A DNA stretch of 64,000 bases from Escherichia coli (lineage in GTDB: Bacteria; Pseudomonadota; Gammaproteobacteria; Enterobacterales; Enterobacteriaceae): the NCBI RefSeq assembly GCF_003334355.1, contig NZ_QOWP01000002.1; one strand, given 5' to 3'. Under the pieces are notes generated by a model, which had not been told where the DNA came from, did not search any database, and worked only from the letters and a program-made list of their open reading frames with translations. This document shows positions 1 through 15,016 of this stretch, piece after piece (the stretch's first letter is position 1; the number at the start of each line of letters is the position of its first letter). Position numbers and translations under genes: made by a program.

Positions 1-1
1 C

Positions 2-181
2 AAATCCAATGGCCGCTCTCTTAATTCAGAATTAGTTCATATAGTGACTGATGCTGTATCAAAGCCATCCAAAATTTCAGGCTATCGAGACGATGCGGAA
101 CGCATCGCTGATGAGCAGTCCGACCTTGTTAAGAAGATGGTGTTTGATACGCTGAAGGATTTGTACAAAAAAACCACCTGA
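2..181 (+). CDS. hypothetical protein, 3' fragment (ORF continues upstream of window)
   Basis: Open frame from window edge to TGA at 179-181 (…DAERIADEQSDLVKKMVFDTLKDLYKKTT*); no family recognised. Confidence 0.3.
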   Translation, partial: KSNGRSLNSELVHIVTDAVSKPSKISGYRDDAERIADEQSDLVKKMVFDTLKDLYKKTT

Positions 182-280
182 CGGTGAGTTAATTTTTGCA
201 TTTACCTGGGCCATATTGACTACTTATAAAATGAGATCAATATTTAATCGCCCAATAACGGGTGTATGTTGAGGTATATC

Positions 281-460
281 ATGGCGAAAAAACCAGGTGA
301 AAACACAGGGAAAAACGGCGGAATATACCAAGAAGTTGGCCCACGCGGCGGTAAGAAAGACAATTTTGCCACCGTCAAGGACAACGAAAGGCTTCCACCA
401 ACAACAAAGCCAGGTCATGGCTGGGTATTGGATAAGCGAACTCCAGACAGCAAAAAGTAA
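281..460 (+). CDS. small protein with YjzC-like signature (hypothetical)
   Basis: 59 aa from ATG 281 with GAGGT SD 6 nt upstream; pattern KPGE..G.Y.EVG..G…LPPT…G..W resembles YjzC-like small proteins; hairpin terminator follows. Confidence 0.45.
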   Translation: MAKKPGENTGKNGGIYQEVGPRGGKKDNFATVKDNERLPPTTKPGHGWVLDKRTPDSKK

Positions 461-466
461 TAATCA

Positions 467-489
467 AGCCGGGTCACTCCGGCTTTTTG
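467..489. terminator. hairpin AGCCGGGTCACTCCGGCT + T-run, between convergent genes
   Basis: GCCGG/CCGGC stem followed by TTTTT directly after stop at 460; overlaps stop of minus-strand gene. Confidence 0.4.
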
Positions 490-839
490 ATATGTCGCTC
501 GCAGAACTCAACAAGCCTGCTCATTAAGTAGCAGTAAGTCTCGTTGGCTCTTCCTGGTTCAACATCAACACCTACCCTTGAGCAGATATCGAATGCCATG
601 TGAGCGCACTCATGGGCAATAGTAGATAGTTTGCCATTGAACACGCCTATCACATGCAAAACACCATTCTCGCTACTCATTGTATGAGACGCTCCGTTGG
701 CGTCCGAGTCATGCACGTCAACGCCAAGTTTTTGATGCAGGCGTTGCCATTCTGGAAAGTCTCTACAAAACACAATTGTACCGCTCTCAAAGAGCGGAAC
801 GAGCATCTTTGGTACGTTTCCAATGTTAACTTTTTTCAT
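474..839 (-). CDS. HExxH-motif protein, putative small zinc metallopeptidase-like
   Basis: 121 aa ORF with protein-like composition and a single HECAH motif ([10 protein letters not shown]); weak SD (AGGA). Confidence 0.5.
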
Positions 840-869
840 GGTATCCTGCGTAAAACTAAGGAGGTTGGT

Positions 870-1364
870 GTGTCTGATTCTATGAGTTACGCTGTGCTAG
901 TTGCCGCAACTCTATTTCTGGGGATAGGGTTGCAGATTGCGTGGTTCTTTTTTTCTAGTTTTATTAAACGTAAAAGAATTGAATCAAGGATATCTGAGAT
1001 TTCTATTGCTATAGGGAAAAATGCTGAAAATCCAGAGAATGAGGCCTGCGCACTGAATTACCTTAAAGAAAAGTTTTCCCCTGAAAAATTTGAAAACAGA
1101 ATTACTGATGCTCTTGGATTGGTAATATCAGTAATTCATATGCCACTAAGTTTGCTGATAACAGTGTGGTACTTCGCCATGATCGCCGGAAGAATATTTG
1201 GTTTCATGAATATAGAGCCTGTAGTTCTTTGGGTTCCAATGATACTGCAATTGTTGTTAAGCGTTGCTATCTTTATTTTTTCTGTTTTTATAAAAATTGT
1301 CTTCGGAAGATACCCCGGAGAAGCGAAGGGATTTAATAAAGAATTCATAAAAACTATAAAATAA
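870..1364 (+). CDS. AT-rich 3-TM membrane protein (candidate superinfection-exclusion/cargo gene at sieA position)
   Basis: GTG 870 preceded by AAGGAGG (858-864); three hydrophobic helices; ~33% GC versus ~50% flanks; upstream in-frame extension to 654 looks non-coding. Confidence 0.5.
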
Positions 1365-1386
1365 ATGCCGTCCTTGGCTTACAGTG

Positions 1387-3261
1387 CTACTGCCGGGTAG
1401 CTTCGTTAACTAAGAGCGGGCGCACGGCAGTAGCCGCCTGATTTAGCGCTCTTTCATAAGCTGGCGTTCCAGCTTTAGTGTTTGCCAGACGTAAGAGCGC
1501 ATTCCTTGCTGCTTTGGATTCATACAAGCGCATCATTGCACCGAAACCAGCCTCAAGCCCCATTGATACGCCAAGAGTCGTAGTTGCGCCAATCGTCCTT
1601 ATCCTGTTGGCTTGCGATTGCCCCGTCTGAGTTACTACATTTGCGGTGTCTGATCTTGCTGTTTGCTGTAGAACTTCATGAAGAGCATCAAGTTCTTTCA
1701 TGTGCTTTCCAGAAAAAATAGCGTTGTAAATTTCACCGCCTGACTGAGATTTCAGCTTATTAACTTCCGTGATGAACTTGGCTGGAGAGTCACCGGCCTT
1801 TTCCGCTATTTTGCTGACGTAAGCTGCACGCATAGCATCTTTCCCTTTATCATCCAATGCGCTCCAGATTCGTTTCACGTCAGATGGTTTTCTGCTTAAT
1901 ACAACAGTATTTATAAGTTCAGGACTGGCTTCACTGCTTGCCTTGTTGAGCTTGTTAGCAATGTTTTTATTAAGCACCTTATTATAAACGTTTGCATAAT
2001 CGGAATTTGCTTTAAGGTATTTTGCTGCGTCTGAAGCACCGAGGTTTTTAGCAACTGCGTTACGAAGGTCTTTTGACATTGCATTCTCTACCATATTGGT
2101 AGCTGCTTTTGCCTGGTTGGGGAAGACCATGGCATCTCCCTGAACATTAGATCTAAATGCTGTTCTGTGCTGGCGCAAGAGATCAAACGTAACATCCAAA
2201 TCAGTTGCAGGGTTTGCTAATTCTTCACGTAGGTTACGCAAGGATGTAAGCAGGCTTTGATTGGCAGAAGTCCCAAGCCGTTCCTGTCTTGCGATCGCTG
2301 TATTCAGAGCATTCATGGTATTTGTGGTATCAACTGCGGCATTACCCATTTTATTGGTGACGTCATTGATAACAGCGCCAGCGGCATCCTTCCGTCCCCT
2401 TAACGTGGTGGTCAGAGATTTCACCACATCATCAGGGTTGTACTCACCAAAACGGTCAAAATAATTGCTTACCAGCTTACTACGCGTTGCATATTGCTCC
2501 GCTCGCTTTGAGCCTGTCCCGAGCAAAGCCCCCTCAGCATCCTGAGTAAGTCCGCGAGTGAAAGCATTTTTCGGCGGGATAACATCAGATGTCATTGGTG
2601 TCACGCCCATCGATTCTGATGTGGCAATTTTCTTTGCCACTTCTGGCGCAATATCACCTTTTATAGCCGTTATTCCACGCCCTATTCCCTTTGCTGCTGC
2701 GGAAAGAACCCCCTGAGCGGCAAGGTTAACTCCGGCATTTTTAGTTGCATTTTGTGCGAAATCGCCTTTCTGATTTGCGGCCTCTGCCAGTGATCCAATA
2801 GCCATGCTTCCTGCCGTTCCAACTCCTGGAACTAAATACCCGCCAATTGTTTCACCAGCTTGAGCGTAGGGGTCTGTCGGTCGATCGACTGGACGATAAA
2901 CATCATCCAAAACCTTGGGGCCACCAAGCCCCTGGCTGATTGCATTAATCAGGCTTGCGCCGCCCTGTAATACGTCGAATGGTATGTTTACCAGACCACG
3001 ACCAGCCTGCTCTGCAATTTGCCCTGCACTTTGACCACCTGTGAGCCAATCACCAGCTTGTTGCATCAATGATGGTTCTTCTTTCTGCTGCTGAGGCGGA
3101 GGGTATGCTGCATAAAACTGATCTCTTGCTTCAGCCCATTTGTCACCAGCCTTAGGGGCAACAACCTCATCAAAATATTGCGCTTGAGCCTGTGCTTTCT
3201 GTTCTTCAGTTAACGCCTGATACTGTGGAGAGGCGATAACATCTTTCCATGCTTTAGCCAT
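1387..3261 (-). CDS. ejection/internal virion protein, P22 gp16-like
   Basis: 624 aa, Ala/Gly/Gln-rich, last gene of late operon; size and position match P22 gp16 (609 aa). Confidence 0.7.
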
Positions 3262-4655
3262 TAATCACCCCATAGTGAAGAAAAGTTACTGCTGGCTGCT
3301 GGCTGTGATACCTGTGTAGGTTGAGATTGCTGCCGCTGAGATTTACCAACATTAACGTTATATTGTTGGTTGTAATTGTCGGTATATTGCTGAATGTCGC
3401 GCATTGATTGTTGCAGTGCTTCAGGGCTTGAGAAATCAACCTGTGGCATACCTTGAAAATACATCTTTGCTTCTGCAACGGTGTTGATACCGGATGCCCC
3501 CATGTCTCTGGCTGCTGCAATGCCCTGATTCTGCATCTTTCCTTGGATTCGCTGTGCAGCGTTGTATAGTTTCCTCTGATCACCACCAGATGCACGGCTA
3601 CGAATATCTGCACCAAGAGCAGGAGAACCTGAAGAGCCTGTAATGCCAGTCATGAAGCCAAGATCGTCAATTGATGCACCAGAAATTGCATCAAGATCTT
3701 TCTTCATTGCGTAATTCTGCGCGCTTGCTGCCGATGTAGCCGGAGCGGCAATAGAGCCAGCAGGGACGCGAACCATATTCCCCTCGTTGTCGATACCTTC
3801 GTAGAACGCATTAGCCCCAGCGCCGTGAAGCTTCCCGCCTACCGTTACAGTTCTGCCATCTGATAACTGAACTGTACGCTCATCATTCCCAGCGATTCCT
3901 CTTATTGACGCTCGCTTCATTGCCAAATCCTGACCTCGTCGCGCAGTAGAAGCAGATAAGTCCTGACCGCGCATCGTGATGTTCTGGCCTCGTGCTGTTA
4001 GTGCTTCTCCTGCCTGATTGCTGCGGATTGTCTCTGCCAGTCTTCCTCGGTCAATCTCACGACCAGCCATCTTGTCCTGAACATTGAAGTAATCAATTGG
4101 ACCAAGAGCAGCCATTCCAAGGTGATCAACAAACTCACCAAATCCTGAAGGGTTCTGCTGATACATCTGAGCAACGTTATTAGGGTCAACACCGACGCGA
4201 GTCAGTTCCTTGGCGTTGTTTTGCAGCCATGATTGCATTGCTTCTGGAGACGAGGCCGCAAGGCGTGCGCCAGCCGCTAAGGTGCCGATAGAATTGCGCT
4301 GGTCTTCGTCTGCCCACTTCATACCAGACTGAATCTTCTCTAATTGACCAGGATATTTGGCCATCAGATCTCGAACCTGCTGTCGATCACCTGATTGAAT
4401 AGCAGAAGCATAATCCTTTCTGAATGCCGCCTCTTGCTTCTGCTGATCATATTGCTGCAATCCTTGCATTGTGCTTGTTATTCCCTGCAGAGCCTGCAGA
4501 CCGATATTGTTGCGACCAAGCCTGGCATCCTCATTATTCTGACGAATGTAAGCCAGTGTCTCATTTACATCACTCGCCTTTGGCGCATTCTCATTTTGCG
4601 CACCAATTCCAGCCAGAAAACCACCGGAGTTGATGCTCTGTTGCCAAGTTGCCAC
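3261..4655 (-). CDS. ejection protein, P22 gp20-like
   Basis: 464 aa; synteny and size match P22 gp20 (471 aa). Confidence 0.7.
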
Positions 4656-4667
4656 TGTTCACCTCCA

Positions 4668-5330
4668 TCAGTAAAGAAGAGAGCCGAGAGCACCTACACC
4701 TGCACCAATTGCCGCTCCCCATGGACCACCAACACTGCCACCAATAGCAGCACCGGAACCTATTCCACCAATCAATTTCTGACCTGTAGATGGTCGGTTG
4801 GCATTTGCTGCGACTGCTGCTGCCTGCTGTTGATACAACTGACTGGCATTGTTTGCATAGGTCTGCCCGGCGTTTGCCTGACCTGTAAGAGCACCAAGGC
4901 CGATATTTGCCAGATTGTTGTAGTTGTTCATCTGACCTGACAGCCAGTTTTGACCGAGTGTAGGTGCGATTGCTGCTAACTGGTTTCCTGTTGCTGTAGA
5001 GCCTAATCCACCCGTTGCCTCTGCTGCTGCCAGACTCTGATAGCGCGCCTGCCCTGCAAGGTCTTTATACTGCTGGGAGTTGTAATACTGGTTAAGCGCC
5101 TGACCTTGCCCCTGAAGAGAGGAAAGATTTTGCAACTGTGATACGTACTGCTGAGCGAGTGGCGTGAACGGTGCAAGGTTCTGCATGTTCGTTTGCCACA
5201 TTTCACGCTGCAATTCGATGCCCTTTTCAGTTGCGCGTGCCTGGGCTTTAGAGCCGGAGTCGCTGCCGCCTTTCATATACCCATTCATGGGAAGCAATTT
5301 ATTCTTGAAGCTTTCGCTAAGTACTAACAT
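4668..5330 (-). CDS. ejection protein, P22 gp7-like
   Basis: 220 aa, Gly/Ala/Gln-rich; synteny and size match P22 gp7 (229 aa). Confidence 0.65.
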   Translation of the reverse strand: MLVLSESFKNKLLPMNGYMKGGSDSGSKAQARATEKGIELQREMWQTNMQNLAPFTPLAQQYVSQLQNLSSLQGQGQALNQYYNSQQYKDLAGQARYQSLAAAEATGGLGSTATGNQLAAIAPTLGQNWLSGQMNNYNNLANIGLGALTGQANAGQTYANNASQLYQQQAAAVAANANRPSTGQKLIGGIGSGAAIGGSVGGPWGAAIGAGVGALGSLLY

Positions 5331-13600: not shown

Positions 13601-15016
13601 TCAACCTACACCACAAGGAATTGAGTAACTGGAATAGTCGGGTTGCGCAGCCGACTCCGGGCAATGCATACACATCATCAGCGCATCAGCCAGGTTAGGA
13701 GATGGAATACCGAGCTTCTGCTTCATTTCGACCTTAGTCATTAGCTCCAGCTTCCCGTTGTTATTGAATTTGCGCTGAATCTGCGTCAGTTCTGCAAACA
13801 GCTTCTCCAGCATATTCTCGCCTATCGCTTCTTTGTCGAAACTCAGCATGTCGTCGGGGTCTGCATACTCACCGTGAACAACCGCCCGATATGTCAGATA
13901 CAGCCTGTCAGCCAGCGCGTAATAGAATTGCGCTCGCTTATTGCGGAATACATCGCCAATAGTGCGAACATTGTCGCCCTGTACGACTTCATCAGCCCAT
14001 GCTCCGGCCTGATATGGCGCATCTTCATCGAATGGCGATTCGCTGCCCTTGAACATCGTGGCGGTGATTTTCTTGCCGGAGAACGCTTCCGTTGTCTGTC
14101 TGCGTAGCCCGGCACCAACACCATCACCATCCCACAGGTAATGGTCAGCGCCGTCTTCAATCGCCAGCGAAGTAGCCCAGTCAGCACCCTCGTTGATGTC
14201 CATCAGCAGACCTTCGGCAATGCGCTTAACTACCGAACCTTGACGCGATGCGTAACCTTTAGCATCTGGCCCTGTATCTGACGGGTCATGTGCAGAAACA
14301 ACCGCGCCTTTCGCTTTCCATCCGAGTTTCTTGTGCGCATCGGTTGCGGCTTCAAGCCATTCACGTTTGATGATTGCCATATCACTTGCGCTTACCGGCT
14401 CACCAAGCCAGATGTGACGATACAGTGTCGGATTTCTGCGTTTACACTCTTCCATCTCCAGACGGAGAACTTCAGGAAAGTGCGGGTTGTCGGTGTAGTT
14501 CACCGTCAGCAGGCAAATATCATCGGGAGGATTTACAACGAATCGCTGATAGGTATCGTCGAGGATGTTCTTCGGGTTAAAGCTCACCCATATTTCGGAA
14601 AACGGCTTGCGGATGGTTGGGATCAGGATATCCCATGATTCCTTCGTTACCGCTTCCGCTTCTTCCACCCAGCAGATATCAATGCCTTCGAGCGATTTAA
14701 TCTTCGTCGGGTTGTTTTTGATGCCGTAGAACATGAATTCAGCATTCGTTCCGAGATGACGGATCATTGAACGCTGAATTTCAAACTCAGCCGAATACCC
14801 TTCACGCTCGATGGTGTCTTCAAGCAACCGGATTACCGAATCGCTGATACTGTTTTGCAGTTCACGAGCACAGAGAATACGCACTGGCTGCCGACGCGCC
14901 GCTTCAACAAGCAGTCTCGCAATTGCCCATGATTTACCGCTACCTCGACCGCCTTTGGCGACTTTGTAGCGATGCGCCTCAATGAACGGTTCAAAGATAG
15001 GATTAATCGAGGTCAT
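13601..15016 (-). CDS. terminase large subunit
   Basis: 471 aa, Walker A GGRGSGKS near N-terminus; overlaps small subunit stop. Confidence 0.9.
   Translation of the reverse strand: MTSINPIFEPFIEAHRYKVAKGGRGSGKSWAIARLLVEAARRQPVRILCARELQNSISDSVIRLLEDTIEREGYSAEFEIQRSMIRHLGTNAEFMFYGIKNNPTKIKSLEGIDICWVEEAEAVTKESWDILIPTIRKPFSEIWVSFNPKNILDDTYQRFVVNPPDDICLLTVNYTDNPHFPEVLRLEMEECKRRNPTLYRHIWLGEPVSASDMAIIKREWLEAATDAHKKLGWKAKGAVVSAHDPSDTGPDAKGYASRQGSVVKRIAEGLLMDINEGADWATSLAIEDGADHYLWDGDGVGAGLRRQTTEAFSGKKITATMFKGSESPFDEDAPYQAGAWADEVVQGDNVRTIGDVFRNKRAQFYYALADRLYLTYRAVVHGEYADPDDMLSFDKEAIGENMLEKLFAELTQIQRKFNNNGKLELMTKVEMKQKLGIPSPNLADALMMCMHCPESAAQPDYSSYSIPCGVG

Follow-up and report, generated by a model that had tools for sequence, protein, structure and literature searches.

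The accessory block beside gene 16

The first 1,386 nt of the window, the term used here for the whole 64,000 nt stretch of Escherichia coli DNA that was analysed, almost certainly represent the right-hand portion of P22's 'ant moron' as borne by a P22-like E. coli prophage, and comprise four known genes. The 'ant moron' is the immI/sieA accessory region, flanked by ejection gene 16 on one side and by the tailspike gene on the other. The identity, integrity and arrangement of all four genes are established, with no observation speaking against the identities, and the block itself is already known, as it is the textbook P22 sieA/immI accessory region re-detected in an E. coli prophage. Window positions 83-1400 align to nucleotides 13300-14617 of P22 (BK000583) with 96.6% DNA identity, ungapped and in a single piece, and mnt, orf59a, the sieA promoter, sieA and gene 16 are colinear in this alignment. 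At the amino acid level, identities to the P22/HK620 counterparts are 93% for SieA, 78% for the C-terminus of Mnt, 77% for gp16, 98% for Orf59a and 99% for HkcC. The block also shares 99.1-99.4% identity with six complete E. coli genomes, where the RefSeq names include 'Arc family DNA-binding protein' and 'superinfection exclusion protein A'. The coordinates of the features are given in the table.

Features of the accessory block and its border with the late genes (window coordinates)
Feature	Position	Strand	Basis
mnt 3' part, Arc/Mnt-family ribbon-helix-helix repressor of immI	1..181	+	homology to P22 Mnt
predicted sigma-70-like promoter (TTGACT-17-AATATT) upstream of orf59a	216..244	+	consensus scan and hexamer conservation
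orf59a (HkcD in HK620), 59-aa basic YjzC-like protein	281..460	+	98% to P22 orf59a; phrog_3202
GC-rich hairpin, mnt/orf59a terminator	466..485		stem scan; P22 and HK620 annotation
hkcC homolog, 121-aa standalone HExxH...E zincin-like protein	474..839	-	99% to HK620 HkcC; phrog_1365
predicted PsieA promoter, inside first hkcC codons	809..839	+	homology to P22 annotation
sieA type A, 164 aa, GTG start, inner-membrane superinfection-exclusion protein	870..1364	+	homology; phrog_7745
gene 16 homolog, ejection/DNA-transfer protein	1387..3261	-	77% aa to P22 gp16; phrog_770 E 7e-276

The original prediction was that P22 late synteny, with sieA and immI, had been replaced here by an uncharacterised block of four genes that could not be assigned to any characterised function. 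This is contradicted by the colinear alignment and by the clear homology to P22 sieA and mnt, which account for two of the four genes. The description does hold for orf59a and hkcC to the extent that their function is unassigned, but these are also known genes, already listed for P22 and HK620 without an assigned function (PMC2629481). The bordering gp16-like gene and the plus-strand frame running off the window were both correctly recognised. The former is the last late gene ahead of the accessory region, and the latter is mnt, of which the last 59 codons and the stop lie in the window, while the N-terminus with its DNA-binding strand lies outside. Identity to P22 Mnt residues 25-83 extends to 46 of the 59 residues and includes the C-terminal tetramerisation region; the fragment has Arc-like PHROG matches, and the phage and E. 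coli records that match it assign the gene to the Mnt or Arc family.

The order and orientation of mnt, orf59a, hkcC and the terminator hairpin are those of the P22 immI region, with the difference that the window holds just the 3' end of mnt. In E. coli prophages that are nearly identical, mnt lies directly against the tailspike gene, and arc and ant are absent from the annotation. The tailspike gene just beyond mnt in these genomes places sieA between gene 16 and the tailspike gene, and the reduced immI resembles that of phages ST64T and L (PMC2629481, PMC8022706). HK620 has the same convergent layout around its terminator tORF59A, with 99% identical HkcC and 98% identical HkcD; it differs in having hkcB (109 aa, with an N-terminal TM segment and a coiled coil) in the sieA slot, and in retaining only remnants of mnt and ant.

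SieA and superinfection exclusion

The membrane protein encoded next to gene 16 is identical to P22 SieA at 152 of 164 residues over its full length (12 substitutions, E 3e-114), and matches phrog_7745, 'superinfection exclusion SieA-like', across residues 1-164 of 164 (E 7e-109). Three hydrophobic segments were predicted by a Kyte-Doolittle scan, at approximately residues 5-32, 78-111 and 114-150, and the FxRYPxEAxxFNK motif described in PMC10883804 is found at residues 145-157. The GTG start has a Shine-Dalgarno sequence, AAGGAGG, 5 nt upstream. The gene had been described as AT-rich with three TM segments and a strong Shine-Dalgarno sequence, all in keeping with these data, but its GC content is 35.6% rather than the approximately 33% given. 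It lies on the opposite strand to the late genes and ends 22 bp from the stop of gene 16. The P22 'sieA promoter' (13861-13891) maps through the colinear alignment onto the predicted PsieA interval, which was not flagged by a simple consensus scan. The likeness to P22 SieA therefore covers protein length, the three predicted TM segments, the motif, the position beside gene 16, the orientation and the upstream promoter region; the difference is that sieA is carried here by an E. coli prophage, whereas P22 is a Salmonella phage. Type-A sieA is uncommon in E. coli, being present in 35 of 5426 complete genomes.

SieA has been characterised as a protein of the inner membrane that by itself stops P22-like phages from injecting their DNA (Leavitt et al. 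2024, PMC10883804). Exclusion of more than 10^7-fold was obtained from a construct with sieA and only 85 bp of upstream sequence, both P22 SieA and the 24%-identical HS1 SieA exclude when expressed alone, and SieA escape mutations map to gp16 and gp20 (PMC10883804). Carried over from this literature to the present allele, the same mechanism and sufficiency would apply: the three-TM protein would be expressed from the prophage and, through interference with the trans-envelope conduit of gp16 and gp20, would keep superinfecting P22-like phages from injecting their DNA. The resident gp20 shares 62% amino acid identity with its P22 counterpart, compared to the 77% of gp16, and at the residue corresponding to P546 of P22, a SieA-escape position, the resident gp16 has Thr.

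The suggestion that this locus holds an exclusion module was therefore correct for the membrane gene, because that gene is sieA itself, but it does not extend to the proposed partnership with the HExxH protein. In that proposal, the HExxH protein and the three-TM protein would together make up a new abortive-infection or exclusion system of two components that had displaced sieA/immI. The setting is favourable to it, as the locus is a known exclusion hotspot in which hkcC and sieA are adjacent and divergent, although their starts (839 and 870) do not overlap as had been reported and are separated by a 30 bp gap. However, the membrane component is SieA, for which the 85 bp construct mentioned above is sufficient, and these 85 bp span approximately the first 18 codons of hkcC. 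Furthermore, hkcC is found without sieA in HK620, in the majority of the E. coli genomes that have it, and in prophages of siphovirus type or from Xenorhabdus. The two genes also lie on different strands and their expected timing is opposite, with sieA expected from the prophage and hkcC from the late operon. Coverage of at least 80% of window positions 1-1400 at one place was found in only 7 of the 5426 complete E. coli genomes; as 35 genomes have sieA, 132 have orf59a with hkcC and 7 have the block, hkcC and sieA assort independently. A defence system was also not indicated by PADLOC-DB 2.0, where the five proteins had zero matches at E<=0.1, although this is a weak negative as SieA itself was also missed. 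That HkcC and SieA form one system is not supported, and a joint system of the kind proposed is very unlikely.

As originally posed, the finding is consequently of little importance, with the exclusion function already accounted for by SieA (Leavitt et al. 2024, PMC10883804). It can serve as a calibration case, in that an AT-rich three-TM gene beside gene 16 of a P22-like prophage should first be compared to types A, B and C of SieA.

The hkcC gene and its zincin-like product

The 121-aa frame with the HExxH motif, convergent with the 59-aa frame as had been noted, encodes a protein with 99% identity both to HkcC of HK620 and to the product of an ORF in P22, from which it differs by one amino acid. 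The P22 ORF is intact, yet it is unannotated in BK000583 and NC_002371, and this raises the alternative that the frame is non-coding, a chance opening on the strand opposite the sieA promoter region, in which case its omission from P22 annotation would be explained. Consistent with this, the sieA promoter sits within the 5' end of the ORF, and on the opposite strand the sieA frame stays open for 72 codons (654-869). The gene is, however, an annotated CDS in HK620 and in RefSeq (WP_000757525.1), its homologs occur in contexts that have no sieA, and those with only 18-43% identity retain the full length and an invariant HExxH...E. Non-synonymous change is strongly depleted (pN 0.24-0.29) against saturated synonymous change (pS 0.75-0.90) among homologs which are 57-63% identical, and the AF2 model is confident (pLDDT 89). 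A non-coding frame is barely credible in the face of these observations, and the comparisons identify hkcC as a genuine gene, subject to purifying selection. The product matches phrog_1365 (E 1.7e-39).

In every alignment made, H76, E77 and H80 of HkcC are invariant, and E100 is invariant down to homologs of 18% identity, the sole exception being a frameshifted fragment in one alignment. The AF2 model predicts a beta-beta-alpha-beta-beta topology followed by two helices (residues 71-88 and 100-116) which carry the HExxH motif and the Glu consecutively. The Glu is located 20 residues past the second His, which is the spacing of H146 and E166 in thermolysin. HkcC shares with the thermolysin-like gluzincins the HExxH motif and a downstream Glu on the following predicted helix, but differs from them in having no Pfam or NCBIfam family match; its zincin-like fold is a prediction. 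Pfam searches with HkcC and 18 homologs gave nothing significant, the best being a SprT-like match for one member (E 0.086) and a spurious lantibiotic match, and all five proteins were without matches in NCBIfam. A profile search recovered 546 cluster representatives at E<=1e-3, and among the best 150 of the 546 most were 105-140 aa in length; by these sequence criteria hkcC belongs to a large family of HExxH...E proteins of approximately 120 aa.

Comparison to PDB sequences with phmmer gave marginal matches to thermolysin and neutral proteases over the HExxH...E stretch (E 0.09-0.7), while a profile search of the same sequences gave nothing and Foldseek found no significant match of the model in the PDB. 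In the AFDB, Foldseek returned proteins of approximately 120 aa automatically named SprT-like, IrrE-N-like or DUF4157 (E 1e-5 to 1e-16). The name 'IrrE N-terminal-like' is confined to the automatic names of some of these AFDB neighbours. An ImmA/IrrE (M78) protease which cleaves Mnt as its repressor was considered and rejected, as neither HkcC nor the 18 homologs match PF06114, the neighbouring mnt encodes a ribbon-helix-helix protein on the opposite strand, and no repressor lies next to the copies in siphoviruses and Xenorhabdus.

The gene is on the late strand in all eight contexts compared (P22, HK620, Morganella, Rosenbergiella, Klebsiella, a metagenome contig, Xenorhabdus and ST64T), and a terminator scan of the interval from gene 16 to hkcC revealed no minus-strand terminator-like site. 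Transcription of hkcC is probably by read-through of the late operon from gene 16, so that, judging from its position, the gene would be expressed late. Taken with the features of its product, HkcC may be a late-expressed zinc metallopeptidase.

The convergent pair of hkcC and orf59a

The 59-aa gene had been predicted to carry a YjzC-like signature. The ORF is present and its product matches phrog_3202 (E 7e-31), but the match to the YjzC Pfam family PF14168 is weak (i-E 0.0018, 19.0 bits, model positions 8-54 of 55), although close homologs in UniRef are named 'YjzC family protein' and distant homologs carry a precomputed PF14168 match. Its pN is 0.09-0.19 against saturated pS, and within an artificial fusion model Orf59a is predicted to adopt a compact three-stranded beta fold (pLDDT 92-97). 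The hexamers of its predicted promoter occur at the same place upstream of the homologs in Rosenbergiella, K. oxytoca and the metagenome contig, and are invariant in the alignment while the spacer and flanks diverge. The hairpin downstream has an 8 bp stem with a T-tail on the plus strand and a poor tail on the minus strand; it is annotated as the 'mnt terminator' in P22 and as the bidirectional terminator tORF59A in HK620, and its minus-strand arm encodes the last codons of hkcC, K-P-E-stop. By its sequence features, orf59a therefore has the architecture of a moron, with its own conserved predicted promoter and a hairpin terminator.

An orf59a homolog is located tail-to-tail with a mini-zincin gene, 6-22 bp apart, in six of seven contexts. 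Two of the six are P22-like phages, those of Salmonella and E. coli and those of Morganella; three are tail operons of siphovirus type, from Rosenbergiella, K. oxytoca and a metagenome contig; the sixth is a Xenorhabdus locus downstream of lysis genes, where the zincin is 18% identical to hkcC and keeps the HExxH...E. Where measured, the orf59a homologs in these pairs share 76-81% identity. In the phage collection 52 records were found for hkcC and 52 for orf59a, each at >=95% identity, and both genes occur together in 132 of the 5426 complete E. coli genomes. Because the convergent pair travels together through unrelated phage contexts, hkcC and orf59a appear to share a functional link with one another and not with sieA.

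One form that such a link could take is a mobile two-gene module, in which the late mini-metallopeptidase HkcC acts on or counteracts Orf59a, a small protein that would be made from a promoter of its own, in the lysogen as well. This is possible but doubtful. It would agree with the convergent pairing in six of seven contexts regarded as independent, the equal co-occurrence in phage records, the conserved promoter hexamers of orf59a and the zincin being encoded on the late strand throughout the contexts compared. On the other hand, inheritance of a single mobile cassette could explain the co-occurrence with no functional interaction, the distant hkcC paralogs (Orf129 of ST64T and L, and epsilon34 gp70) are beside terminase genes and have no orf59a partner, and S. 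bongori has orf59a without the zincin. When hkcC was joined to orf59a through a 30-aa linker and modelled with AF2 (partly paired rows), both parts were confident but the overall pTM was only 0.57, which does not point to a confident interface. Under the module reading, Orf59a could for example be a prophage-expressed effector or defence factor that is switched off when the phage itself grows lytically, and orf59a may in addition be silenced by late transcription running towards it.

The fuller proposal, that the pair is an unrecognised mobile system in which a beta-fold defence, exclusion or host-modulating factor made in the lysogen is removed or neutralised by the late mini-metallopeptidase, is improbable. 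If true, it would make orf59a/hkcC a protease-based self-immunity switch aided by convergent transcription. A type II toxin-antitoxin system was rejected, as the genes are not co-oriented and in all contexts are convergent with a terminator hairpin between them. No functional study was found in the literature on orf59a, hkcC and YjzC; the pair is the one remaining loose end of this block, both genes having been listed as of 'unknown function' since 2001-2008, and P22 genetics provide a cheap route to their role.

The pairing of orf59a with a zincin was seen within the Enterobacterales, and is not extended to the Gram-positive YjzC genes. In Clostridium phage phiCT9441A a YjzC gene likewise lies inverted among the genes of the structural operon, but the HExxH motif is absent from its neighbour, and the YjzC matches in Brochothrix and Streptococcus are in unannotated frames.

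Gene content and relationship to P22

The gene coordinates are based on an ORF listing and direct reading of the sequence, and are tabulated with those of related features in comparison loci (L003 to L018) from other phages and genomes. The original description of the ORFs was essentially correct by both means, except that the HExxH and membrane gene starts, said to overlap, are divergent and 30 bp apart (839 and 870), and the GC content of the membrane gene, given as ~33%, is about 36% (35.6%, versus 47.6% for the whole window). This ORF, sieA, encodes three hydrophobic blocks. Its frame is open for a further 72 codons upstream of the GTG, antisense to hkcC, producing a mechanical ORF of 236 aa; P22 has the same upstream open frame, which is probably kept open incidentally, by coding constraint on the opposite strand.

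Coordinates of features in the window and in comparison loci
Feature	Locus	Position	Strand	Remarks
mnt 3' end	window	1-181	+	ORF entering from window edge, stop at 181
orf59a promoter	window	216-244	+	sigma-70-like, TTGACT-17-AATATT; sequence scan
orf59a	window	281-460	+	59 codons
hairpin terminator	window	466-485		other arm encodes K-P-E-stop of hkcC
hkcC homolog	window	474-839	-	121 codons; 10-residue stretch with HExxH
sieA upstream open frame	window	654-869	+	antisense to hkcC
sieA	window	870-1364	+	GTG start, AAGGAGG 5 nt upstream
gene 16 homolog	window	1387-3261	-	624 codons
orf59a promoter homologs	L005; L006; L008	6619-6591; 6629-6601; 6593-6565		TTGAC-17-AATATT
orf59a/hkcC pair, tail to tail	window; L005; L006; L008	281-839; 6001-6556; 6001-6563; 6001-6526
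orf59a/hkcC pair, tail to tail	L017; L018; L010 (HK620)	3001-3557; 3001-3580; 3501-4059
hkcC ORF	P22 (BK000583 / NC_002371)	13861-14223
hkcB	L004; L010 (HK620)	4871-5200; 3141-3470
mnt adjoining tailspike gene	L003; L004	2920-3171; 1726-4193		near-identical E. coli prophages
YjzC-family gene	L013 (phiCT9441A)	2486-2653		inverted

A megablast search of window 1-1400 against phage genomes matched 59 phage records, 52 of them from Salmonella phages and including every P22 record. Window 83-1400 aligned with P22 as one colinear piece of 96.6% identity, and the matched stretch of BK000583 carries mnt, orf59a, the mnt terminator, the sieA promoter, sieA and the end of gene 16 in the order and orientation seen here. 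Identity with the P22 proteins is 152/164 residues (93%) for SieA, 98% for Orf59a, 78% for the C-terminal 59 residues of Mnt, 77% for gp16 and 62% for gp20. The membrane protein was assigned over its full length to 'superinfection exclusion SieA-like' in PHROGs (E 7e-109), and the motif FxRYPxEAxxFNK, described at SieA residues 145-157 (PMC10883804), is found at exactly these residues. In E. coli, the source species of the window, six complete genomes carry the whole block at 99.1-99.4% identity, and RefSeq calls its genes 'Arc family DNA-binding protein' and 'superinfection exclusion protein A'. The segment is thus already known, as the sieA/mnt accessory genes of P22. Because homology to P22 sieA and mnt is clear, the claim that sieA and immI are replaced here by unassignable genes is wrong, and the block is not novel as its genes were already known. 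In the near-identical E. coli prophages L003 and L004, mnt adjoins the tailspike gene, and arc and ant are unannotated.

Exclusion by SieA and the sieA slot

SieA is found in the inner membrane and nowhere else, and it prevents both K+ release and lysogenisation (PMC10883804). Its targets are confined to P22-like phages, it works in E. coli, and the mutations that allow escape lie in the C-terminal parts of gp16 and gp20 (PMC10883804). A single chromosomal sieA together with the 85 bp upstream of it lowered P22 plating >10^7-fold (Leavitt et al. 2024, PMC10883804). Of the HExxH gene, these 85 bp include no more than about 18 codons at the 5' end, and the HExxH protein is therefore dispensable for exclusion. 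The predicted role of the membrane protein in exclusion is borne out trivially, since the protein is SieA, and the same construct leaves the proposed peptidase and membrane-protein 'system' unsupported. In the resident phage, gp16 is highly diverged at the residues equivalent to P22 534-546, and carries Thr at residue 561, the counterpart of P22 Pro546; the P22 gp16 substitution P546S is among those that escape SieA. The four gp20 escape positions (T338, T341, A348 and G350) are all unchanged.

A survey of 5426 complete E. coli genomes found the sieA segment in 35 and the orf59a and hkcC segment in 132, and only seven have a place that spans 80% or more of window 1-1400; hkcC appears to be linked to orf59a rather than to sieA. 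Numerous E. coli prophages match the window over 1-872 and continue, exactly at the sieA start position, into a homolog of hkcB, the HK620 gene for a 109-aa protein with a coiled coil and an N-terminal TM segment; hkcB may be an alternative exclusion gene. The break at ~872, a few bases from the sieA start, is seen in HK620 as well as in these prophages.

Conservation and predicted fold of HkcC

The hkcC ORF is intact in P22, differing from the window protein by one amino acid, and has no CDS annotation in BK000583 / NC_002371, where only the 'sieA promoter' and 'mnt terminator' features are given. Homologs are annotated in HK620, many P22-like phage records and RefSeq E. coli genomes; the 121-aa protein is 99% identical to HK620 hkcC, and orf59a corresponds to HkcD. 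Both 59a and hkcC already figure among the P22/HK620 genes in the literature (Villafane et al., PMC2629481). The protein matches phrog_1365 (E 1.7e-39) and 32 database clusters, down to 43% identity, and its profile matches 546 cluster representatives at E<=1e-3 and 151 at E<=1e-10, the best 150 matches listed being mostly of 105-140 aa. H76, E77 and H80 are invariant in the alignments, as is E100 except in one frameshifted fragment. Against homologs of 57-63% identity, pN is 0.24-0.29 with synonymous sites saturated (pS 0.78-0.90). Judged by this conservation, hkcC is a real gene.

The AlphaFold2 model (pLDDT 89, pTM 0.83) has a predicted beta-beta-alpha-beta-beta topology followed by two helices bearing HExxH and a Glu 20 residues beyond the second His, which is the thermolysin spacing. 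Exactly this stretch was aligned by phmmer with thermolysin and neutral protease, at E 0.09-0.7 only. Foldseek gave no significant match in the PDB and many ~120-aa proteins in AFDB50, automatically named SprT-like, IrrE N-terminal-like, DUF4157 or 'lysine-specific metallo-endopeptidase domain'; Pfam, NCBIfam and PADLOC searches found nothing. These structural comparisons are weak. HkcC is probably a minimal gluzincin-like metallopeptidase with a putative zincin fold and a predicted activity.

Predicted transcription and possible partnership of hkcC and orf59a

The predicted promoter and the hairpin terminator would give orf59a classical moron architecture. In five contexts the promoter hexamers are unchanged despite a diverging spacer, which suggests that orf59a has transcription of its own, in addition to that from Pmnt implied by the P22 map. 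Outside P22-like phages, siphovirus tail operons of Rosenbergiella, Klebsiella oxytoca and a metagenome contig contain an hkcC homolog, flanked by the tube/chaperone genes on one side and the tape-measure gene on the other. In Xenorhabdus the homolog comes last in the lysis cassette, and in ST64T, L and epsilon34 the more distantly related Orf129 group occupies the interval from the lysis to the terminase genes. As hkcC is on the late-gene strand in every context examined, and a window scan found no minus-strand terminator-like site between gene 16 and hkcC, late read-through would be the simplest source of its mRNA.

The residual question of the locus is the role of the two genes together. 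In six of the seven contexts examined, a convergent gene of 59-60 aa, 76-81% identical to orf59a where measured, lies 6-22 bp from hkcC, the settings being P22-like podovirus prophages, siphovirus tail operons and the region after the Xenorhabdus lysis cassette, where the zincin retains HExxH...E at 18% identity to hkcC. S. bongori carries orf59a without the zincin, and the Orf129 paralogs occur without orf59a. In an AlphaFold2 fusion model Orf59a is a compact three-stranded beta protein (pLDDT 92-97), with no evidence of a confident HkcC-Orf59a interface (pTM 0.57), and no functional study of either gene was found in the literature searched. Our best guess is that a prophage-expressed small protein, Orf59a, and a late mini-metallopeptidase, HkcC, could form a functionally linked pair; a link of any kind is a tentative proposal that we consider rather unlikely, and the specific reading as defence with self-immunity is very improbable. 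The Gram-positive phage phiCT9441A of Clostridium likewise has a YjzC-family gene inverted within its structural-gene operon, among neighbours that are not zincins.
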